This document shows, piece after piece, positions 8,792 to 47,264 of a DNA stretch of 64,000 nt. Made by a program: the position numbers and the translations under genes. Numbering within the stretch: position 1 is the first letter of the stretch; each line of letters starts with the position of its first letter. This stretch comes from Firmicutes bacterium UBA3570. Its GTDB lineage: Bacteria; Bacillota; Sulfobacillia; UBA3561. The stretch covers positions 16,026 through 80,025 of the forward strand of contig DFNJ01000033.1 of assembly GCA_002376005.1 (NCBI GenBank). Reading direction: 5' to 3'. Under the pieces are notes generated by a model, which saw nothing but the letters and a program-made list of their open reading frames with translations, had not been told where the DNA came from and did no database searches.

Positions 8792-10063
8792 GTGACGCCC
8801 TTGCTATGGGGCTTTCCGGCAGGCAGGGTGCTCGTGGCCATACTGCGTCTTTTGCCCCAGGTGATGCTGCACCCTTCTTACACCCTCATCTTCATGGTGG
8901 TGCTTGGTCTGGTGGCCATGCAGTACCGGCGCATCGCCCTGACGGAGGAGAAACTGTACGGGCGGGTGAAGAACCCGCCCTTGAGGCAGACCCTCCTCGG
9001 TCTGGGTTTTGGCTTCCTGGGTGGCATCTTTGCCTCCTTCCTGCTGGCGCTGATCGGGGTTCCTTTACGGGGGTCGGGGCTAATATACCTGTGGCCGGTG
9101 GCGGTGCTGTTGTTCCTGATCAATCCCCGACTGATGTGCTTCTCCTACGCCGGGGGTCTACTGTCCATCGCCAGTTTGGCTTTGGGGTTCCCCGACATAA
9201 ACGTTCCTGCCCTCATGGGGCTGGTGGGCGTGCTGCACGTGACCGAAAGCCTGTTGATCGCAGCCACCGGAGCCACCTGCGTCACCCCGCTTTATCTACG
9301 TAACCGCCGGGGAAAAACGGTGGGCGGCCTCAGCCTCCAGCGCTTCTGGCTGGTTCCTCTGGTGGTGATCGTGGTGGTGTTCATACCCCAGGGGACCAGG
9401 CTGCACGGTGCCCTGGAGATGCCCGACTGGTGGCCCTTGCTGGGGGGCACCGAGGGGCTGCAGGTTCCCCCGGGGCGAATACCGGCCTATACCATGTTGC
9501 CGGTGCTGGCCGCTCTGGGATATTCAGACGTGGCAGTGATTTCCGATCCCCGCCGCAAGGCCCAACGGAGTGCCACCAACCTGGCCTTTTACAGCCTGTC
9601 CCTGCTGGCGCTGGCCATTCTGTCCGCCCGCCACCCCTGGGTGCGGTGGCTGGCGGCCGCGTACGCTGCACTGGGACACGAGATGGTGGTGCTGCTGGGC
9701 AGTTACTGGGAGCTCCGCAGCGATCCCCGCAGACCCGTGGGGCCGGGAGTACTCATCCTGGACGTCTTCCCGGACACGCCCGCCGCGCGATCAGGGCTGC
9801 GGCCCGGCGACCAGGTGGTGGCGGTGGACGGGCACATCACCAGCACCCGGGAAGAGCTCAGGGCACTGCTCGCCACCACCCACCCACCCTACACCCTGGC
9901 TGTGCTCTCGCCCGGTGACCAGGAGCCCAGGGAAATCGTCATCTCGGAGCCGGGCCGGTTGGGCGTAGTTCCCTTCCCTGACGCCGATGACCGGGCTCAG
10001 GTGCAGCTCCGCACCGGCGGGATTCTGGTCCGGTGGTGGAGGAAGTGGAGGAGACGCCGTTGA
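8792..10063 (+). CDS. Polytopic membrane protein with C-terminal PDZ, MinJ/SwrAB-like
   Basis: Many TMs, RLMCFSYAGG, LVGVLHVTESLL, C-terminal PDZ (TPAARSGLRPGD); same position as Bacillus ftsEX-ctpB-minJ. Confidence 0.8.
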   Translation: MTPLLWGFPAGRVLVAILRLLPQVMLHPSYTLIFMVVLGLVAMQYRRIALTEEKLYGRVKNPPLRQTLLGLGFGFLGGIFASFLLALIGVPLRGSGLIYLWPVAVLLFLINPRLMCFSYAGGLLSIASLALGFPDINVPALMGLVGVLHVTESLLIAATGATCVTPLYLRNRRGKTVGGLSLQRFWLVPLVVIVVVFIPQGTRLHGALEMPDWWPLLGGTEGLQVPPGRIPAYTMLPVLAALGYSDVAVISDPRRKAQRSATNLAFYSLSLLALAILSARHPWVRWLAAAYAALGHEMVVLLGSYWELRSDPRRPVGPGVLILDVFPDTPAARSGLRPGDQVVAVDGHITSTREELRALLATTHPPYTLAVLSPGDQEPREIVISEPGRLGVVPFPDADDRAQVQLRTGGILVRWWRKWRRRR

Positions 10064-10941
10064 ACGCTCACCGCCACCCATCGGTCGTCCTGGTGGTAGT
10101 GGTCATCCTTCTCGCGGCCGGTGGGTTTTCCGAATGGTACCATCAGGCAGTGGATCAGCCCGACCCACCAGCTGACGGAGCCGCAACCGTCCCGGAGCCT
10201 CGAGATCCGTCGCCGGCCTACCTGGATGCGGACGTTCTTTTCTCCGCCGGACTGCATCCCCACCGCCTGGAAAACCCCTCGCCCTTGCTGGCGGTGGTCA
10301 TCGACGATCTGGGCTGGGGTGCGGCAGTGATTCGAGACCTGCTGGAGGCAGGGATTCCCCTCACCTGCACGGTGCTTCCCGATGGACCGTTCACTGCCCG
10401 CGACGCGCAGCTGGTACTGCGGGCGGGTCACGACCTGTTTCTGCACGTCCCCATGGAACCGCTGCAACCGCGACCCCATGCGGGACGCATAATAACCTGC
10501 GGGGCCGATCCCCACAAGGTGCGCCAGCTACTGGAGGACTGGCTGGCGCAGGTCCCGGGGGCGGTGGGGATCAGCAATCACATGGGCTCGCGGGCCTGTG
10601 CCGATCCGGGCATCGTGGACGTCCTGCTGGACGTGGCCGCCGAGCACGGTTTGCTGGTGTTGGATTCCCGCACCAGTCCCCGTTCTCTCATAGCAGCGCG
10701 GGCGCGGGAACGGGGTCTGATTGCCTTTGAGAACTGTCTCTTTCTGGACAACCAGCGGGATTTTGAGGCCATCAAGCGCCAGCTGCGTAAGGCGGTGGAG
10801 TGGGCACGGCGCCATGGTCACGCGGTGGTGATCGGGCATCCCCACGAGAGCATGCTCAGGGCGTTGCGATGGCTGGTGACCGAGCTGCCCGCCCTGGGTG
10901 TCCGACCGGTGAAGCTCTCCGAAATCGCCACTGGCCGATGA
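10060..10941 (+). CDS. Divergent polysaccharide deacetylase family protein (YibQ-like)
   Basis: N-terminal TM, AVVIDDLG, LHVPMEP, GISNHMGS, LDSRTS, FLDN, VIGHPH. Confidence 0.9.
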   Translation: MNAHRHPSVVLVVVVILLAAGGFSEWYHQAVDQPDPPADGAATVPEPRDPSPAYLDADVLFSAGLHPHRLENPSPLLAVVIDDLGWGAAVIRDLLEAGIPLTCTVLPDGPFTARDAQLVLRAGHDLFLHVPMEPLQPRPHAGRIITCGADPHKVRQLLEDWLAQVPGAVGISNHMGSRACADPGIVDVLLDVAAEHGLLVLDSRTSPRSLIAARARERGLIAFENCLFLDNQRDFEAIKRQLRKAVEWARRHGHAVVIGHPHESMLRALRWLVTELPALGVRPVKLSEIATGR

Positions 10942-10951
10942 GCCCGGTGCC

Positions 10952-10980
10952 TTGACATGGGCCCAGAGGAAAATTATAAT
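10952..10980 (+). promoter_or_regulatory. Consensus sigma-A promoter
   Basis: TTGACA (10952-10957), 17-bp spacer, TATAAT (10975-10980). Confidence 0.9.
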
Positions 10981-10984
10981 GAAA

Positions 10985-11090
10985 GTCAGGGCTTGTATGG
11001 CGGCAGGAGCAGAGGAAGTTTGCGCCTAGATCGTAAATCTCTTGCACCCATCTGACCCGACCCGCTGATCGTGGGACGGGTCAGGTTTTC
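10985..11090 (+). ncRNA. Candidate structured leader RNA or sRNA (unassigned)
   Basis: Lies between consensus promoter and terminator hairpin; stems ATGG/CCAT and GCAGGAG/CTCTTGC; I could not match it to a known riboswitch family. Confidence 0.45.
11052..11089 (+). terminator. Intrinsic terminator-like hairpin upstream of PGM operon
   Basis: CTGACCCG/CGGGTCAG (8 bp) + CCCGC/GTGGG (5 bp), loop TGATC, followed by GTTTT (short T tract). Confidence 0.65.
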
Positions 11091-11124
11091 CCGGGTATAT
11101 AACTGGCCGAGGAGGCGGGATGAG

Positions 11125-12594
11125 TTGCGCAGCAGTGCTGGACGCAGGTGGTTGCTGCCGGAGGGATACCAGGTCAAGTTCGGAACCGATGGATGGCGCG
11201 GCATCATTGCCGATGATTTCACCTTTGGGATGGTCAGACTGGTGGCCCGGGCCATCGCCGAGTACGTGGTCAGCCGCGGGGGTCCGGGCCAGGCGGTGGC
11301 CGTCGGCTACGACACCCGATTCATGGGGGCGGAGTTTGCGCTCCAGGTGGCCTCTAGCCTGCGGGACGCCGGGCTGAAGGCTCTGTTGTCGGAAGGATGG
11401 ATCCCCACTCCCGCGCTGTCGTGTGCGGTGATCGATGGGGGACTGGCGGGAGGCGTGATGGTCACGGCGAGCCACAACCCCGCCCGATACAACGGGATAA
11501 AGTTCAAGCCTCCTTACGGCGGTTCGGCCACCCGGGAAGTTACTGATGAAATCGAACGCATCGCCAACGCCCTGCTGGAGAGGGGCTTGCCCCCGTCGCG
11601 CCATGGGGGTACCATCCAGCGGGTATCCATGGCCGAGGGATACTTCCGCCGTCTGGCCCGGGTGGTGGATTTCCAGCTGTTACGCTCTGCACCCTTACGG
11701 GTGGCAGTGGATCCCATGCACGGTGCCACCATGGGATACCTGCAGGAGGCGTTTCACAGAGCGGGCTGCGAGGTCCTGGCGGTGGGCGATCAGCCCAACC
11801 CGGCCTTCGGCGGCCGTCACCCTGAGCCCATTGCTGAGCACCTCAAGCAGCTGATGGAGCTGGTGCCCCGGGAGGGGGTCGATCTGGGGGTGGCCTGTGA
11901 CGGCGACGGTGACCGGGTTGGCCTGGTGGATGAGCAGGGCAATTTCGTCAACTCCCACCAGATATTCGCCATCCTGCTGATTCATCTGGTAAAGAACCGT
12001 GATTGGCGGGGTGGAGTGGTGAAGACCATTTCCACTACCTCCATGATTGACATACTGGCGCGGCAATACCAGCTGCCACTGTTCGAGACCCCGGTGGGGT
12101 TCAAGCACATATGCCGCCTCATGTTGGAGAAAGATATACTCATGGGTGGCGAGGAGAGTGGGGGGTTGGGCTTCAAGGGGCACATTCCGGAGCGCGACGG
12201 GATCCTCTCCGCTCTGCTGGTGGCGGAGCGGATGGTGGCAGAACAGAAGTCCCTCGCCCAGCTGATCGAGGATCTGGAGGCTCGGGTGGGACCTCACCAT
12301 TATCGCCGGCGCGATGTTCACGTCCCGGCCAGCGCGCGGGAGGCCATCCTGGAGGAGCTTCGTCTTCGTCCGCCGCGGGAGGTAGCGGGCAGGACCGTGG
12401 ATCGATTGCAGTGCACGGACGGATTCAAGTTCCACTTCACGGACAGCAGTTGGCTACTGGTCCGACCTTCGGGGACCGAGCCGCTGGTGCGGCTGTACGC
12501 GGAAGCGGCCGATCCCCGTCAAGTAGAGGCGTACCTCGATGCTGCGTACGGCTGGCTGCGAGAACGGGCGCATGCGGCTGATGAAGGAATCTGA
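11125..12594 (+). CDS. Phosphoglucomutase/phosphomannomutase family protein (start uncertain, 11071-11152)
   Basis: KFGTDGWRG, TASHNP catalytic Ser, DGDGDR metal loop, GGEESGG, VRPSGTEPLVRLYAE. Confidence 0.92.
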   Translation: MRSSAGRRWLLPEGYQVKFGTDGWRGIIADDFTFGMVRLVARAIAEYVVSRGGPGQAVAVGYDTRFMGAEFALQVASSLRDAGLKALLSEGWIPTPALSCAVIDGGLAGGVMVTASHNPARYNGIKFKPPYGGSATREVTDEIERIANALLERGLPPSRHGGTIQRVSMAEGYFRRLARVVDFQLLRSAPLRVAVDPMHGATMGYLQEAFHRAGCEVLAVGDQPNPAFGGRHPEPIAEHLKQLMELVPREGVDLGVACDGDGDRVGLVDEQGNFVNSHQIFAILLIHLVKNRDWRGGVVKTISTTSMIDILARQYQLPLFETPVGFKHICRLMLEKDILMGGEESGGLGFKGHIPERDGILSALLVAERMVAEQKSLAQLIEDLEARVGPHHYRRRDVHVPASAREAILEELRLRPPREVAGRTVDRLQCTDGFKFHFTDSSWLLVRPSGTEPLVRLYAEAADPRQVEAYLDAAYGWLRERAHAADEGI

Positions 12595-12617
12595 AGTTGG
12601 ATGGGAGGTGAAGCACC

Positions 12618-13784
12618 GTGGTCAAGAACATGAGGCTGCGGGTTGCCTACCTGAGCACGTTCCCGCCGCGGCAGTGTGGTCTTGCCACCTTCACGCAGGA
12701 CCTCACGGCGGCGATCAACGACCACGGGCTGTTCGAGCCCGCCAGGATCATCGCCATGATCAATGGCGATGCGCGACAATATCCCGCCAACGTCCGATTC
12801 CTGATCCGCGAAGATGACCCTGATGATTACGTCAAGGCAGCGGAATACGTGCACAAGGCAGGCATCGATCTGGTCAGTCTTCAACATGAGTTCGGCATCT
12901 TCGGTGGCGAAGATGGGGAGTACATTCTGCGTTTCCTGCGCGCGTGTCGGGTGCCCGTCATCGCCACCATGCACACCATCTTGCAGAGGCCGTCGCCCCG
13001 GCAGCGCCGGATTGTCAGAGAAATTGCCAAACATAGCCAGGTGCTGGTGTCGTTGTGCCGCAAGGGGGTGGACTTCCTGACTCAGATTTATGGAGTGCCC
13101 CGGGATAGGCTGGTCCACATCCCCCACGGCGTGCCGGTACCGCCCAATAGCTGTCCCGATGAGGCGAAACGGAAGCTGGGGCTGGAAGGCCGTCAGCTGA
13201 TCACCAGCTTCGGGCTCATCGGGCCGGGCAAGGGCATCGAGGTGATGCTGAAGGCCATGCGCGACGTGGTGCGGGCCTGCCCCCGGGCACTGTACCTGGT
13301 GCTGGGTAGAACCCACCCCAGGGTGCAGCGGCAGTGGAAAGAATCCTATCGGGAATGGCTGGTCGACCTGGCGCGACAGCTGGGGATTTCAGACTACGTC
13401 CGCTTCGTCAATCGCTACCTGACCAGGTCGGAGTTGCTGGAGTATCTGGTGGCCAGCGACGTGGTGGTGACTCCGCACCTGAGTAGGGAACAGGTGTCCA
13501 GCGGTACGCTGACCTACGCCCTCGCCTTGGGAAAGGCCATCGTGTCCACTCCCTTTCACTACGCGGTGGAAATGCTGGCCGGACGCAAGGGATTGCTGGC
13601 CCGGTTCGCGGACCCGAGGTCACTGGCCGAATGCGTCAGGAGGATCCTCACCGACTCTGAGTTGAGGCGTTCGCTGGAGCAGGGGGCAGCGAGGACAGGA
13701 CGGCGGCTGTTCTGGCCATCTGTGGCCTGGGACTACTGCCGGCTGTTCTCCCAGGTGATGGCCATGACTGCGTCTGCCAGCTGA
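12618..13784 (+). CDS. GT4 glycosyltransferase
   Basis: STFPPRQCGLATFT, QHEFGIFGG, FGLIGPGKGIE, SSGTLTYA; GGAGGTG RBS. Confidence 0.88.
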   Translation: MVKNMRLRVAYLSTFPPRQCGLATFTQDLTAAINDHGLFEPARIIAMINGDARQYPANVRFLIREDDPDDYVKAAEYVHKAGIDLVSLQHEFGIFGGEDGEYILRFLRACRVPVIATMHTILQRPSPRQRRIVREIAKHSQVLVSLCRKGVDFLTQIYGVPRDRLVHIPHGVPVPPNSCPDEAKRKLGLEGRQLITSFGLIGPGKGIEVMLKAMRDVVRACPRALYLVLGRTHPRVQRQWKESYREWLVDLARQLGISDYVRFVNRYLTRSELLEYLVASDVVVTPHLSREQVSSGTLTYALALGKAIVSTPFHYAVEMLAGRKGLLARFADPRSLAECVRRILTDSELRRSLEQGAARTGRRLFWPSVAWDYCRLFSQVMAMTASAS

Positions 13785-13795
13785 ATGGAGGGGAG

Positions 13796-14155
13796 ATGAA
13801 TGCCATGAAGCGGGTGGAGAAGCCGTGGGGATGGGAGCTGTGGTGGGCGGTCACTGATCGATACGTGGGCAAGGTGATTCACGTCCGGGCCGGCGAGGCC
13901 CTCAGCCTGCAGTACCATCAGAGGAAGAAAGAGAGCATGCTGTTTTGGGAAGGCGAGGGCGTACTCACCCTGGGTGATGCTGAGCGACGGGTGCGGCCCA
14001 TGGAAGCTGTAACCATCGAGCCTGGCACCGTTCACCGCATCAGGGCGATCACCGACCTGACCTTCATGGAGGTATCCACACCCGAAGTCGACGATGTGGT
14101 GCGATTGGCCGATGATTACGGTCGTGCCGCATCATCCCCTACGGAAACCTCATAG
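13796..14155 (+). CDS. Stand-alone cupin resembling type II mannose-6-phosphate isomerase domain
   Basis: EKPWG, LSLQYH...K.E, PGTVHRI, DDVVRLADDYGR. Confidence 0.75.
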   Translation: MNAMKRVEKPWGWELWWAVTDRYVGKVIHVRAGEALSLQYHQRKKESMLFWEGEGVLTLGDAERRVRPMEAVTIEPGTVHRIRAITDLTFMEVSTPEVDDVVRLADDYGRAASSPTETS

Positions 14156-14158
14156 GAG

Positions 14159-15235
14159 GTGTTCCTCATGCCCAAGCTCCCTGAGCTGGACCTCTCTCAC
14201 CTGGATCGCATGACCGATGACACTGGAATTATCCAGCATGCTTTCTACGGGATCCCGGACCGGCGCACCGGCTACACCACCGACGACAACGCCCGGGCGT
14301 TCCTGGTGGCCCTCAAGCTGCACGAGCTGTACGGCAGCCGGCGGGCCGAGGAGCTCGCTGCCGTGTACCTGGCGTTCCTGTGCCACGCTCAGCGCGAGGA
14401 CGGGCGCTTTCACAACTTCATGGATTATGAGCGCCGGTTCGTGGATGAGGTGGGGTCGGAAGACTGTTTCGGCAGGTGCCTGTGGGCCCTGGGTTACTGC
14501 ATCGCCTGCCGCGGCAGAGACCTCTTCGGTGTTGCTGCGGCGGAGATGTTCAGGCGGGCGTTACCGTGGGTGGAGCGTTTGAGGGCACCTCGGGGTAAGG
14601 CATTTTCCCTGCGGGGGCTGTACCATTACTGGCAGGCCCACCCGGATAGCGAAGCGATACGGCGAATGTGCACCCACCTGGCCAACGACCTGGTGATGAG
14701 TTTCAGGCGCAACAGCGGACCCGAGTGGCAGTGGTTTGAGCGGCAGTTGACCTATGACAACGGCATACTACCCAGCGCCCTGATGGTCGCCTATCGTGTC
14801 ACCGGGAAGGCCACTTTTCTGGAAGTGGGACGGAAGGCCCTGGAATTTCTCCACCGGATGGTGATGCCCAGCGGGATCCTAGAACCCATAGGCAACCGCG
14901 GTTGGGCCACCGCCGACGGCTACCGGGCGGAGTTCGATCAGCAGCCGCTGGAGGCGGGCTCCATGGTGGATGCCTATCTGTGCGCTTGGAACGTCACCAA
15001 GGACACTCGGTACTTGAAATACGCCACCCAGGCCTTCGGGTGGTTCCTCGGCCGCAACCGCCACGGGATCTGGATTTACGACTCGGAAACTGGTGGATGC
15101 CGGGATGGACTGACGCCCACCGGGCTAAACTTAAACCAGGGAGCGGAGTCGCTCCTCACCTACTTGTGGGCGTGGGTCAGCCTGCAGGAAGTGCAGCGGG
15201 ACCGCCGCAGCCGCGTGGCCGGCGAGGGGAGGTGA
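14159..15235 (+). CDS. Uncharacterised (alpha/alpha)6-barrel-like protein usually paired or fused with this GT4 subfamily
   Basis: HLDRMTDDTGIIQHA, GYTTDDNARA, EDCFGR, FDQQPLE, WFLGRN, CRDGL, NQGAES. Confidence 0.7.
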   Translation: MFLMPKLPELDLSHLDRMTDDTGIIQHAFYGIPDRRTGYTTDDNARAFLVALKLHELYGSRRAEELAAVYLAFLCHAQREDGRFHNFMDYERRFVDEVGSEDCFGRCLWALGYCIACRGRDLFGVAAAEMFRRALPWVERLRAPRGKAFSLRGLYHYWQAHPDSEAIRRMCTHLANDLVMSFRRNSGPEWQWFERQLTYDNGILPSALMVAYRVTGKATFLEVGRKALEFLHRMVMPSGILEPIGNRGWATADGYRAEFDQQPLEAGSMVDAYLCAWNVTKDTRYLKYATQAFGWFLGRNRHGIWIYDSETGGCRDGLTPTGLNLNQGAESLLTYLWAWVSLQEVQRDRRSRVAGEGR

Positions 15236-15242
15236 ACGGGTA

Positions 15243-15461
15243 TTGTCCGGGCCCAAGGATGTGGTCCTGGCGCAAACTGTACGCTCGTTGCTCGATGCCA
15301 ATCGCCAGCTGGGTGCTTGCATGATAAAGGTCAAGGCACAGGACGGGGCCATCTGGTTGAGTGGCCGGGTCAACACCCCGGGGGAGCGCGCGGTGGCGGA
15401 ACAGATCGCCCGCAGCGTGGTGGGTGTGCGCAACGTCATCAATGAACTAACGGTTAGCTGA
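15243..15461 (+). CDS. Single BON domain protein
   Basis: I.V...DG.V.LSG.V.......AE.IARSV.GV..V.N.L pattern; GGAGGTG RBS 8 nt before TTG. Confidence 0.8.
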   Translation: MSGPKDVVLAQTVRSLLDANRQLGACMIKVKAQDGAIWLSGRVNTPGERAVAEQIARSVVGVRNVINELTVS

Positions 15462-15499
15462 ACGGAGCAACCTGGCGGAAAGCAGGTGAGGAAGCAACA

Positions 15500-17863
15500 G
15501 TGGAGTACGGTCGCTTCAGCGATGACGGCAGGGAGTACATCATCTTTCGTCCGGACACACCAAGACCGTGGATCAACTATCTGACCAACGGCAGATACTG
15601 CGCGCTGATTTCCCACACCGGGGGCGGGTACTCATTTCACCAAAGCTCGGGATACAACCGCCTCACCAGGGCTCACCCGGCCCAGATGAACGTGACGGAT
15701 CAGCCGGGCCGTTACCTGTACCTGCGGGATGGAGAGACCGACGAGTTCTGGACGGTGAACTGGCAACCGGTACGCCGCGCCCTGACGCGCTGGGAGGCCA
15801 GGCATGCTCCAGGGTGGACTCGGATTTCTTGTTCCCACCGCGACGTCGAGGCGGTGGTCACTTACTTCGTACCCCTGGACGATGACGTGGAGCTGTGGCG
15901 AGTTACCCTGCGTAATCACAGCGACCAGCGGCGGCGTCTGGGGATATTCGGTTTCGTGGAATGGTGCCTCGGCTCATACGCCTTCGATTTGCTGGAGAAC
16001 AGCTTCGCCAATCTGTTCAATGAACTTGCCTTCAGAGACGAGGTGATCCTGGCCACCAAGCGGCTGTGGGAAGCAGGGCGGCGACCCAGCAAGCCGCTGG
16101 CAGGGTGGGATCGCTGGACATTCTTCGCCATGAGCGAGCCGGTGACCAGCTACGATGTCCTGAGGGACCATTTCCTGGGAGGCGGCGGGCTGGAGGCGCC
16201 GGCTGCCGTGGTCAGAGGACGTTGCAGTAACGTGGTGGCATCGGGCCGCGACGCGGTGGCCGTCCTGCACGCGGAGCTGGAAATGGACCCCGCCCAGGAT
16301 CGGGAAGTAACCTTCGTCCTGGGGGTGGCCCCCGACCCCGAGGAGGCCATCAGCAGGGCGGCTCGGTACCGCGATCGCGGGGAGGTGGAGCGGGCCTGGC
16401 AGCACCTGTGCTCGTACTGGGACCGGTATCTGGGGCGACTGTGGGTGCAGACCCCCGACGAGGATATGAACCTGGCGGTGAACATATGGAACAAGTATCA
16501 GGCTTGGGTCACCGCCTGGTGGGCGCGGATGGCCTCGTATTATGTGGGCGGCGGTTCCATTGCCGGATTCCGCGATACCTGCCAGGACATCCTGGGGATC
16601 CTGCCCCTGGAGCCTGACCGCGCCCGCCGGACGTTGCTGGAGTTACACCGGCACCAGTTCGCCGACGGAGGGTGCCTTCACAACTGGGACCCGGTTACCG
16701 ACCGGGGCCCCCGCACCGGGCATTCCGATGACCCCCTGTGGCTGGTCCTGGGCACTGTTGCCTATCTCAACGAGACCGGCGACATGACGCTGCTGGACGA
16801 ACGGGTTCCCTTCTACGACCAGGGGGATGGCTCCGTATGGGAGCACCTGATGAGGGCAGTGGACTTCACCCTCTCGCGGTTCAGCGCGCGGGGGCTGCCG
16901 CTGATGGGGGCGGGCGACTGGAACGACGGATTGAACTGCGTGGGCGAAGCCGGCCGGGGAGAGAGCATCATGGTGGCGGCGCATCTCTGCTGGACGCTCA
17001 GGGACCTGGCACCGCTGGCCCAGCTGCGCGGGGATGACCGCACGGCACACAGGTGCCGGCGGATGGCCGCCGACATCGCGAAGAAGGTGAACGAGCTCTG
17101 CTGGACCGGCGAGTGGTACCTGCGGGCCTTCACCGATGATGGCGAGCCGGTGGGGCATCCTTCCTGCCGGGAGGGCAAGATCTACCTCAACGCTCAGACC
17201 TGGGCAGTTCTCTCCGGCATAGCGACCAGGGAGCGGGCATTGGCCGCCATGGACAGCTGCCACCGCCACCTGGATACACCGTATGGTCCCGCGCTGTTTC
17301 TTCCCGCCTACCGCCAGCCCGATGACCGTTTGGGGATCATCAGCCGATTTGCTCCCGGGTGCAAGGAAAACGGGACCATTTTCAACCACACAGTGGCCTG
17401 GGCGGTGATCGCCGAATGCACGTTGAAGCGGCCGGAGCACGCCTATAAGTGGTGGCGGAACAGCTCCTTCGTGGTGCGGGGCCGTGATGTGGCATCCTAC
17501 CAGGCGGAGCCCTATGTGTACGCGGAGTACGTGCACGGTCCCGACTCGCCATTTTTCGGGCGGGGGGAATTTACCTGGACTACCGGTACCGCTGCCTGGA
17601 TGTGGCGGGCGTGCCTGGACTGGATCCTGGGCGTCAGGCCAGAACTGGAGGGGTTGAGGATTGCCCCCTGCATACCTCCCAGCTGGGCCGGATACGAGAT
17701 GACCCGACCCTTCCGCGGGGCGGACTACCTCATCAGGGTGAAAAACCAGGGCAGCGGTTGTTCGGTGAGAGAGGTGAAGGTGAACGGCAAATCTCTGTCC
17801 GACAATTTGGTGCCCCCACAACCGGGGGCTGGCCCCCATCTGGTGGAGGTGGTGCTCGCGTAG
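15500..17863 (+). CDS. GH94 glycoside phosphorylase (cellobiose/chitobiose phosphorylase-like; substrate unknown)
   Basis: TPRPWINYL, GFRDTCQD, SDDPLWL, GDWND catalytic Asp, GESIMVA, NAQTWAV, KENG..F.H, WTTGTAAW. Confidence 0.9.
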   Translation: MEYGRFSDDGREYIIFRPDTPRPWINYLTNGRYCALISHTGGGYSFHQSSGYNRLTRAHPAQMNVTDQPGRYLYLRDGETDEFWTVNWQPVRRALTRWEARHAPGWTRISCSHRDVEAVVTYFVPLDDDVELWRVTLRNHSDQRRRLGIFGFVEWCLGSYAFDLLENSFANLFNELAFRDEVILATKRLWEAGRRPSKPLAGWDRWTFFAMSEPVTSYDVLRDHFLGGGGLEAPAAVVRGRCSNVVASGRDAVAVLHAELEMDPAQDREVTFVLGVAPDPEEAISRAARYRDRGEVERAWQHLCSYWDRYLGRLWVQTPDEDMNLAVNIWNKYQAWVTAWWARMASYYVGGGSIAGFRDTCQDILGILPLEPDRARRTLLELHRHQFADGGCLHNWDPVTDRGPRTGHSDDPLWLVLGTVAYLNETGDMTLLDERVPFYDQGDGSVWEHLMRAVDFTLSRFSARGLPLMGAGDWNDGLNCVGEAGRGESIMVAAHLCWTLRDLAPLAQLRGDDRTAHRCRRMAADIAKKVNELCWTGEWYLRAFTDDGEPVGHPSCREGKIYLNAQTWAVLSGIATRERALAAMDSCHRHLDTPYGPALFLPAYRQPDDRLGIISRFAPGCKENGTIFNHTVAWAVIAECTLKRPEHAYKWWRNSSFVVRGRDVASYQAEPYVYAEYVHGPDSPFFGRGEFTWTTGTAAWMWRACLDWILGVRPELEGLRIAPCIPPSWAGYEMTRPFRGADYLIRVKNQGSGCSVREVKVNGKSLSDNLVPPQPGAGPHLVEVVLA

Positions 17864-17877
17864 CCGGGGCTGATTTA

Positions 17878-17886
17878 TGGTATAAT
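17878..17886 (+). promoter_or_regulatory. Extended -10 promoter for uvrB
   Basis: TGG-TATAAT about 70 nt upstream of uvrB start; no clear -35. Confidence 0.6.
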
Positions 17887-17956
17887 TGTATCCCGAGGGC
17901 TGGGGAGCGTCCTCGCTCTCCGGCCTTTTGACGCCGTCGCGAAGGTGTGCTTTGCT

Positions 17957-19957
17957 ATGGACGGGTTCCGTCTGGTCACTGATTTTGTGCCGCGGGGAGA
18001 CCAGCCTAAAGCCATCGAGGAGCTGGTGGCCGGGCTGAAGGCCGGGCTCCGGGACCAGGTTCTGCTGGGCGTTACCGGGAGCGGGAAGACTTACGTGATG
18101 GCCGAAGTGATCGCGCGGGTGCAGCGCCCCACCCTGGTGATCGCTCCCAACAAGACCCTGGCCGCCCAGCTGTGCAGTGAGTTCAAGGAGTTCTTCCCTC
18201 ACAATGCGGTGGAGTACTTCGTCAGCTATTACGATTACTACCAGCCCGAAGCATACATCCCGCAAACTGACACCTACATCGAAAAGGATGCGCTGATCAA
18301 CGAGGAGATCGACAAACTGCGCCATTCGGCCACCAGTGCCCTGTTCGAACGCCGCGACGTGATCATCGTGGCCAGCGTGTCTTGCATCTACGGTCTGGGG
18401 TCTCCTGAGGACTACCGCGATCTGGTGGTGTCGCTGCGTACCGGCATGGTCAACGATCGGGATGAGGTGCTGCGGCGTCTGGTGGAGATCCAGTACGAGC
18501 GCAATGACGTCAATTTCACCCGCGGCACCTTCCGAGTACGGGGTGACGTGGTGGAGATATTCCCGGCTTCCTTCGGGGAGCGGGCCATCCGCGTGGAGTT
18601 CTTCGGGGATGAGATCGAGCGCATCACGGAAATCGACGTCCTCACCGGCGAGGTGCTGGCCGAACGGCAGCACGCGGCCATCTACCCTGCCAGCCATTAC
18701 GTGACCAGGGAAGAGAAGATGCGGCGGGCCATATCCAGCATCGAGGAAGAGCTGGAGGCGAGGTTGAAGGAGCTCCGCTCCCGCGGAAAGCTGCTGGAAG
18801 CGCAGCGGCTGGAACAGCGAACCCGCTACGACCTGGAGATGCTGCGGGAGGTGGGGTACTGCCCCGGCATCGAGAACTACTCCCGGCATCTCACCGGCCG
18901 GCGACCGGGAGAGCCCCCCTACACCCTGCTGGACTTCTTCCCTCCCGATTACCTGATGTTCATCGACGAATCCCACGTCACCGTGCCCCAGCTGGGAGGA
19001 ATGTACGAGGGGGACAAGACCCGCAAGGATGCTTTGGTGGAACACGGCTTCCGCCTCCCGTCGGCCTACGACAACCGACCCCTGACCTTTGAGGAGTTTG
19101 AGCGGCGCATCAATCAGGTCATATATGTTTCCGCCACCCCCGGGCCATACGAGCTCAGGCGCGCCCAGAAGGTGGTGGAACTCATCGTGCGCCCCACGGG
19201 ACTGGTGGACCCGGAGGTGGAGATTCGGCCCACGGCGGGACAGATCGACGATCTGCTGAGCGAGATAAAAAAGAGGGTTCAAAAGAACCAGCGGGTCCTG
19301 ATCACCACCCTGACCAAGAGGATGGCGGAGGATCTGTGCGACTACTTAAGGGAGGCCGGGATTCGCGTGCGGTATCTGCACTCGGAAATCGATACCCTGG
19401 AGCGCATGCAGATCATCCGCGACCTCCGATTGGGCGCCTTCGACGTGCTGGTGGGGATCAACCTCCTCAGGGAGGGCTTGGACCTCCCGGAGGTGTCTCT
19501 CGTGGCCATCCTGGATGCCGACAAGGAGGGTTTCCTTCGCTCGGAGACCTCCCTCATTCAGACCATCGGCCGCGCCGCCCGCAATGTGGAGGGAAAGGTG
19601 ATCATGTACGCGGACCAGGTCACCGGTTCCATGCGCAGGGCGGTGGAGGAGACCAACCGGAGGCGGCGCCTGCAGCAGGAGTTCAACCGCCGCCACGGCA
19701 TCACCCCGGAGACGGTCAGGAAGGCGGTACGGGAGGTAATCGAAGCTACCAGGGCGGTGCGGCGCCCGGAGGGTTACTGGCTTGAGCACGACGTGGCCGA
19801 CATTCCCCGCCGTCAGCTACCAGCCATGATAAAGAAGCTCAGGCGCGAGATGAAGGAAGCCGCCCGCAGGCTGGAGTTCGAGCGGGCGGCCAGCCTGCGA
19901 GACCTGATCCTGGAGCTGGAAGCCAGGATGGACGGCAAGCGAGCGGGTGGTGCTTGA
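17957..19957 (+). CDS. uvrB: Excinuclease ABC subunit B
   Basis: [21 protein letters not shown] beta-hairpin, [17 protein letters not shown]-terminal UVR domain. Confidence 0.98.
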
Positions 19958-47044: not shown

Positions 47045-47049
47045 TATCG

Positions 47050-47199
47050 TGCGCTAGCGCCTGAACTCGCCAGGTGGCGAGTTGACGAGGTTGGGGTTCA
47101 TCGAGTTGTTCGGCGGATGCCCCACGGTCTTCCCCACGACCGTCAGCGGCCTGACAAAACCCGGGGGTGACCTCGGGGACAAAGGGGCCAGGTGGGGTT
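47050..47199 (+). ncRNA. glmS ribozyme (GlcN6P-activated self-cleaving riboswitch)
   Basis: A^GCGCCTGAACT core at 47056, P1 AACTCGC/GCGAGTT, GTTGACGAGG, GGGGTTCATCGAG, TTCGGCGGATGCCCC, P3 CGGTC/GACCG, ACAAAAC; directly upstream of glmS. Confidence 0.95.
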
Positions 47200-47264
47200 G
47201 CCTCCCGCACGGGACCGATGAGGGCCCTCATGGTGACAACTTTCGGGAAGGGAGGCTTCTTTTG

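Follow-up and report, generated by a model that had tools for sequence, protein, structure and literature searches.

A perfect sigma-A promoter and a strong hairpin of the intrinsic-terminator type stand one after the other ahead of a six-gene sugar-metabolism unit in the 64,000-nt stretch of DNA analysed here (the window). This promoter-leader-terminator architecture holds, whereas the structured sensor that had been suspected in the leader does not. The explanation we favour, with about even confidence, is a leader attenuator in which transcription would be initiated constitutively near 10987, terminated in part at ~11089 and otherwise continued by read-through into pgm, at a level that would depend on the modest U tract and, perhaps, on general elongation factors. 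The elements involved are the following.

10952-10957, + strand: -35 hexamer TTGACA (sequence check and promoter scan)
10975-10980, + strand: -10 hexamer TATAAT, after a spacer of 17 nt (sequence check and promoter scan)
10985-10989, + strand: predicted transcription-start zone (distance from the -10 hexamer); its bases, GUCAG, would form one side of the proposed P1 antiterminator
10997-11029, + strand: uORF of 10 codons, MAAGAEEVCA, with a weak SD-like AGGG 5 nt upstream (sequence reading)
10997-11051, + strand: imperfect leader hairpin with an 8-nt bulge, CAGAGGAA, dG -17.7 (fold)
11052-11089, + strand: intrinsic-terminator-type element made of a stem-loop (11052-11084), G and UUUU (11086-11089) (fold and shuffle test)
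11110-11116, + strand: pgm Shine-Dalgarno GAGGAGG, 8 nt before TTG 11125 (sequence reading)
11125-12594, + strand: PGM/PMM-family gene of 489 aa with a TTG start (Pfam, four PGM_PMM domains)
17895-17929, + strand: terminator ending the pgm-GH94 unit, a hairpin with UUUU used as in-genome yardstick (dG -27.7, z -4.2)

Promoter and transcription start

An earlier note on this DNA had reported a consensus sigma-A promoter, TTGACA-17-TATAAT, and every letter and coordinate of it was confirmed: it matches the consensus at 12/12 positions and is the sole promoter-like site that a promoter scan detects within 10000-12000. Genome-wide (a 97% complete Bacillota assembly of 2.17 Mb with 63% GC), perfect TTGACA-N16-18-TATAAT is found at 12 sites, this one among them, against a chance expectation of ~0.06 by our own estimate from base composition, which argues that the perfect sites are real promoters. 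The other 11 drive a tRNA operon, groES behind a CIRCE operator, a gene behind a LexA box, three T-box leaders, rpmH, an S1-domain gene and a few more. At least five of these 11 directly precede a known control element (the three T-boxes, CIRCE before groES and the LexA box), so that the combination of a strong promoter with a control element immediately behind it is a common design in this organism. Promoter-like sites occur in 1.9% of random 132-nt segments. Another perfect sigma-A promoter, on the minus strand at a contig end (G000 C20:157419, locus L153), is followed by more than 250 nt that hold neither an Rfam match nor an obvious gene.

Judging from the usual distance of 6-8 nt past the -10 hexamer, transcription most likely starts at 10986-10989, with A10988 as the favoured position. 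The caveat had been raised that the start may cut off part of the GTCAG segment proposed as one strand of a P1 helix, and it was apt: a start at 10987-10988, the likely one, would remove 2-3 of its 5 bases.

The pgm operon and its genomic setting

The promoter and the terminator-type hairpin lie, as had been pointed out, just ahead of a sugar operon, whose first gene bears the Pfam PGM_PMM domains. This gene begins at TTG 11125 (the ATG at 11120 is in another frame), in agreement with public gene calls, and is followed in order by genes for a GT4 glycosyltransferase-family protein, a PMI-type cupin, an (alpha/alpha)6-like protein, a BON protein and GH94 (15500-17863). Since its closest homologues (52-53% identical; loci L182-L185) sit in a conserved manC-pgm-GT4 triad, the PGM/PMM gene of the window is probably a phosphomannomutase. 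The window cassette has no manC, and a stand-alone PMI-type cupin comes after GT4 instead.

A look at the relatives places this unit in context. Among the 21 Limnochordia relatives having yibQ, 12 have uvrB directly behind it, and a LexA box separates the two genes (e.g. GCGAACATTTATTCGC). In the window, yibQ and uvrB are instead held apart by the six-gene cassette, promoter and leader included (10941-17957), and a LexA box cannot be seen ahead of uvrB. The direct yibQ-uvrB order in relatives identifies the cassette, together with promoter and leader, as an insertion, and one that needs insulation. Moreover, the succession of a promoter-like site, a strong hairpin with T4 and a gene start is found at two sites genome-wide, which are the two ends of this cassette. 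At the distal end, the spacer between the GH94 stop and the uvrB start (17864-17956; ATG 17957) contains an extended -10, TGGTATAAT, at 17878-17886; the hairpin with UUUU at 17895-17929 begins nine nt after it, so that the uvrB mRNA would open with this hairpin at its very 5' terminus.

A hairpin of the terminator type between promoter and pgm

The 13-bp terminator that had been described behind the leader is a real hairpin, with UUUU at 11086-11089. Its GC-rich stem is made of 8 + 5 bp around one A/A mismatch, and its predicted stability (dG -25.7, z -4.8) was equalled by none of 200 shuffled sequences. The stem is followed by G, UUUU and then CCC, which makes a weak tract; with 4 T it falls below the terminator-calling rule used (at least 5 T in 8), and hence the element was not called. 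That rule seems too strict for this organism. The 11 T-box terminators of the genome have short and interrupted U tracts, three of them with just 4 T in 8, and the terminator at the end of the operon (17895-17929) shows the same build, also with exactly UUUU. On account of its stability and of these equally short tracts we accept 11052-11089 as a plausible intrinsic terminator. A crude genome-wide test of whether such hairpin+T4 elements avoid ORFs had no discriminating power, because 88% of this GC-rich genome is covered by long ORFs that are spurious. A reading of the palindromes as a DNA operator was considered and found unlikely, given that 3 of the 18 hairpin pairs are G-U, which makes the RNA more symmetrical than the DNA.

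From the end of the U tract to the pgm RBS there are 20 nt, and the promoter scan detects no promoter-like site in them (11090-11110). With no promoter between terminator and pgm, the six-gene unit has to be transcribed by read-through, and it is this point that makes the element a leader attenuator in our reading. It also bears on the suggestion that the element could be a stand-alone sRNA, which is unlikely, since those 20 nt leave no room for a separate pgm promoter.

A milder form of that suggestion takes the ~100-nt terminated transcript as a trans-acting sRNA derived from the 5' UTR, possibly besides attenuation. Such an RNA would have a very strong promoter and a terminator to itself, and 15 nt of the leader (11031-11045, UCGUAAAUCUCUUGC) are fully complementary to the acpP mRNA at codons 4-9 (G000 C24:7239-7253). 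However, some 15-mer match to the genome is shown by 42% of shuffled leaders, and although about 0.03 antisense matches in a start region are expected by a rough estimate, the acpP match was noticed post hoc and is only weakly unexpected; moreover, the 15 nt are within the stem of the leader hairpin, and since pgm lacks a separate promoter, a purely stand-alone RNA is not possible. The precedent is found in Listeria, where SreA and SreB are sRNAs produced from SAM riboswitches by premature termination. The window leader shares with them a short terminated transcript (predicted here) and a strong promoter, to which the acpP match is added, and differs in being a candidate only, with a match that carries little surprise. 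Altogether, we regard a trans-acting role as improbable.

The opposite possibility is that the hairpin exerts no useful termination on transcripts of the 10952 promoter, its sole roles being to terminate the yibQ unit and to form a stabilising or processing structure in the pgm 5' UTR. The U tract of just 4 U is in its favour, as is the similar promoter-before-hairpin layout upstream of uvrB, where the predicted mRNA would begin with the hairpin, which suggests a role as 5' stabiliser in this genome. The 11052 hairpin, on the other hand, is ~65 nt from the start rather than at the 5' end, and a hairpin that ends upstream transcripts should also end these, as a terminator cannot distinguish them. 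We give this possibility a low probability, comparable to that of the trans-acting sRNA.

The leader and the question of a sensor

The earlier note had gone further and interpreted the leader as a structured RNA, possibly a novel riboswitch, in which GTCAG (10985-10989) pairs with CTGAC (11052-11056) at the base of the terminator to give an antiterminator/terminator architecture. The letters and coordinates of both segments are correct, and the two inner helices it listed, ATGG/CCAT and GCAGGAG/CTCTTGC, are present in the MFE fold, where the stems of the leader hairpin are AUGG/CCAU, GCAGGAG/CUCUUGC and GUUUGCG/CGUAAAU. The hairpin as a whole is not above chance (z -1.55, equalled by 19 of 200 shuffles), and with the proposed P1 added the score is -0.74, or +0.22 if transcription starts at 10988, in shuffle tests that are weak and that several real small aptamers would fail. 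Forcing P1 gives a structure 8.8 kcal/mol worse than the terminator fold (-36.0 vs -44.8). Complementarity between the leader and the 5' arm of the terminator does not exceed chance either (p about 0.2 against shuffles): the best duplex with the upstream leader reaches -14.1 vs a shuffle mean of -12.2 to -12.4, a value equalled by 21-23% of shuffles, and the gain in MFE from adding the terminator arm has p 0.17-0.37. As a consequence, the antiterminator built on GUCAG/CUGAC is not sustained, nor is the structured RNA; all sensor-type features are at chance level and a structured sensor is unsupported.

Other switching schemes were tried and set aside. In a three-part translational switch, the pyrimidine-rich 3' arm of the leader would form a 13-bp helix with the start-codon region (11115-11129), but this helix is weaker than that of 97% of shuffles, and a hairpin that would sequester the SD (11088-11114) has z -0.39.

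What the earlier reading had right was that the leader belongs to no known RNA family. A search of 10800-11300 with Rfam 15, both at the gathering threshold and at E<=10, returned just one chance match to a snoRNA, and the T-box (RF00230) has no match at the leader, against 11 T-boxes elsewhere in the genome. The sole Rfam match in the window is a canonical, full-length glmS ribozyme at 47045-47201 (102 bits). Literature searches found nothing relevant.

The uORF that had been listed (MAAGAEEVCA, 10997-11029) is present as described. Its end is 23 nt short of the terminator, regulatory codons do not occur in a run, and no competing-hairpin logic for leader-peptide attenuation could be built for it; it is probably incidental. 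A second uORF, starting at TTG 10993 and comprising 20 codons with its stop within the terminator arm, was rejected for having no SD and for lying 5-6 nt from the start site.

Comparative searches

The leader is single-copy, BLAST finding no second one in its own genome, and in two other public assemblies of the organism it is 100% identical. Beyond the organism, relatives are distant: in collections of genomes, metagenomes and 5.8 billion proteins the nearest PGM is 53% identical, the nearest named match coming from Carboxydochorda, by which the genome is assigned to the class Limnochordia. A covariance model of the leader hairpin and terminator (R1), built from this single sequence, gave no credible match in the 210 class genomes searched (Limnochordia, as in all class comparisons here) or in a sample of 401 genomes of the phylum, where matches stay at noise level. 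It likewise found nothing in 525 kb around 100 pgm homologues, nor at the loci of the closest PGM homologues with filters off. R1 matches in seven genomes of family f38, which showed apparent compensatory changes, turned out to lie within the coding region of a TetR-family N-terminal HTH and were discarded.

The pgm orthologues of the class are about 40-51% identical and mostly follow flgL, with unrelated leaders that have no sigma-A promoter. An orthologue immediately after flgL is seen in many Limnochordia families (f18, f24, f44, f9, f50; loci L095-L113), a position that suggests a link to the flagellar regulon, for instance through flagellin glycosylation. The leaders of family f18 (L095-L097) resemble that of the window in layout, as they have a purine-rich, SD-like segment (GGAAGGAGAG), a pyrimidine-rich one (CUCUUCCUG), a GC hairpin with UUU and an RBS; unlike it, they follow flgL and carry no sigma-A promoter. 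The resemblance, GGCAGGAG followed by CUCUU and the GC hairpin, did not survive closer comparison: a MAFFT alignment is unconvincing, R1 does not match the f18 leaders, and a model of the latter (R2) misses the window leader, so that the likeness is architectural at most. As an observation of their own, the three f18 sequences share a 13-bp anti-SD:SD helix (CUCUUCCUGUCUC with GAGACGGGAGGAG) around the GC hairpin, with GGAAGGAGAG as an upstream mimic of the SD, and in these three sequences the arrangement looks like a translational switch.

These searches, together with the folding statistics, bear on the idea of an orphan metabolite-responsive ON riboswitch, in which a ligand would stabilise P1 around the leader hairpin, either as GUCAG/CUGAC or in the alternative register GGG (10989-91)/CCC (11056-58), withhold the base of the terminator 5' arm and so permit read-through. 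In nascent folds to 11056-11072, two registers do join the 5' end to the beginning of the terminator arm, even when starting at 10988, and the layout resembles switches of the type of pbuE, the adenine ON switch of Bacillus subtilis; as no known family matches, such a riboswitch would be new. Against it stand the stability of the aptamer candidate (z -0.74 to +0.22), the chance-level complementarity, the cost of forcing P1 and its likely truncation at the start site. To these is added the lack of any homologue, whether in the 210 class genomes, in the 401-genome phylum sample (~600 genomes altogether), at the 100 pgm loci or ahead of the closest PGM homologues. The orthologues of relatives have unrelated leaders, and the best covariance-model matches are the TetR coding region. 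We consider this mechanism very unlikely, and a similarly small chance is given to its fuller version, a switch private to a so-far unique Limnochordia lineage by which a sugar phosphate or nucleotide sugar would turn on the PMM-GT4-PMI-GH94 pathway.

Attenuation with and without a specific factor

In the leader attenuator that we favour, the promoter at 10952-10980 would be the promoter of the whole six-gene pgm-GT4-cupin-(alpha/alpha)6-BON-GH94 unit. Transcription would begin near 10987 and cross a leader of ~65 nt that is not significantly structured, whereupon the polymerase would meet the intrinsic terminator at 11052-11089, 20 nt before the pgm RBS, and pgm with the five genes behind it would be expressed by read-through alone, the element acting as a transcription attenuator. 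Most initiations would give a short RNA of ~100 nt as a by-product, and the same hairpin would also end the ctpA-minJ-yibQ transcripts arriving from upstream, thereby insulating the cassette. Read-through would be set by the modest tract of 4 U, with tuning, if any, perhaps exerted by NusA/NusG or by a trans-acting factor rather than by an aptamer in the leader that binds a metabolite. The leader terminator thus plausibly has two jobs, ending the upstream transcripts and throttling the strong promoter of the cassette.

Leaky intrinsic terminators are known to serve as constitutive attenuators and insulators, and NusA and NusG stimulate weak terminators in Bacillus subtilis. The window element has in common with such attenuators a strong hairpin, a sub-optimal U tract, downstream genes that need read-through and an upstream operon that it would end, while it departs from them in that the downstream unit's own promoter precedes the terminator, an order seen genome-wide just at the two ends of the cassette. 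A similar balance is obtained with T-box and riboswitch leaders, represented by the 11 T-boxes of this genome and by the pbuE switch. As in these, a strong sigma-A promoter is followed by a leader of ~100-250 nt and by a GC-rich hairpin whose short U tract lies right before the RBS, and three of the perfect promoters of this genome drive T-boxes. Unlike these, the element of the window has no conserved sensor domain, as it shows no Rfam match, no homologue and no antiterminator above chance, and its leader comprises just ~65 nt before the terminator, not significantly folded.

A perfect promoter running straight into a terminator is nevertheless the classic layout of a regulated attenuator, and a specific sensor may exist beyond the reach of one-sequence shuffle statistics. 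In this regard, an RNA-binding protein or a trans RNA could bind the leader, either in the 5' half, which is rich in purines and AGGA motifs (GGCAGGAGCAGAGGAAG), or in the pyrimidine-rich 3' half, and alter termination at 11052-11089, access to the RBS, or both. CsrA is one such candidate, being encoded in the genome, and AGGA occurs at 11005-11008, at 11013-11016 in the predicted 8-nt bulge, and within the SD (11111-11114). The position of pgm orthologues directly after flgL in many class relatives corresponds to a flagellar late-gene neighbourhood, in which CsrA acts in Bacillus subtilis, and the pairing of a strong promoter with a terminator is what regulated attenuators usually show. However, GGA motifs are common in purine-rich leaders, the leader motif has no second copy in the genome and hence no regulon, and the helix that leader and translation start could form instead is weaker than that of 97% of shuffles. 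The genome, 97% complete, gives no match to PF03123, so that no BglG/LicT-type CAT_RBD protein is encoded, and PF02357 finds a single NusG, which leaves no NusG paralogue such as LoaP; antitermination of the LicT (RAT) and LoaP/RfaH types was discarded on these grounds, and sites for ANTAR, TRAP, HutP and PyrR gave no fit by eye. Control by a dedicated factor is in our opinion unlikely, with roughly a one-in-several chance of being the case.

Significance

If the leader attenuator is correct, an ordinary leader terminator would control an inserted sugar-metabolism cassette, and the main use of the analysis would be in the annotation of the transcription unit, with its promoter, start, first gene at TTG 11125 and both terminators. 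For the discovery of RNAs by comparison, the case illustrates a limit, since a lineage without sequenced relatives leaves conservation and covariation inapplicable, and single-sequence statistics give no support here. A specific sensor, if found, would matter more, the candidate ligands being Man1P, Man6P and Glc1P, which are substrates of the operon. To our knowledge, no sugar-phosphate riboswitch exists besides the one for GlcN6P (glmS), and if the leader proved to be a riboswitch it would be the first to sense a sugar phosphate apart from glmS.
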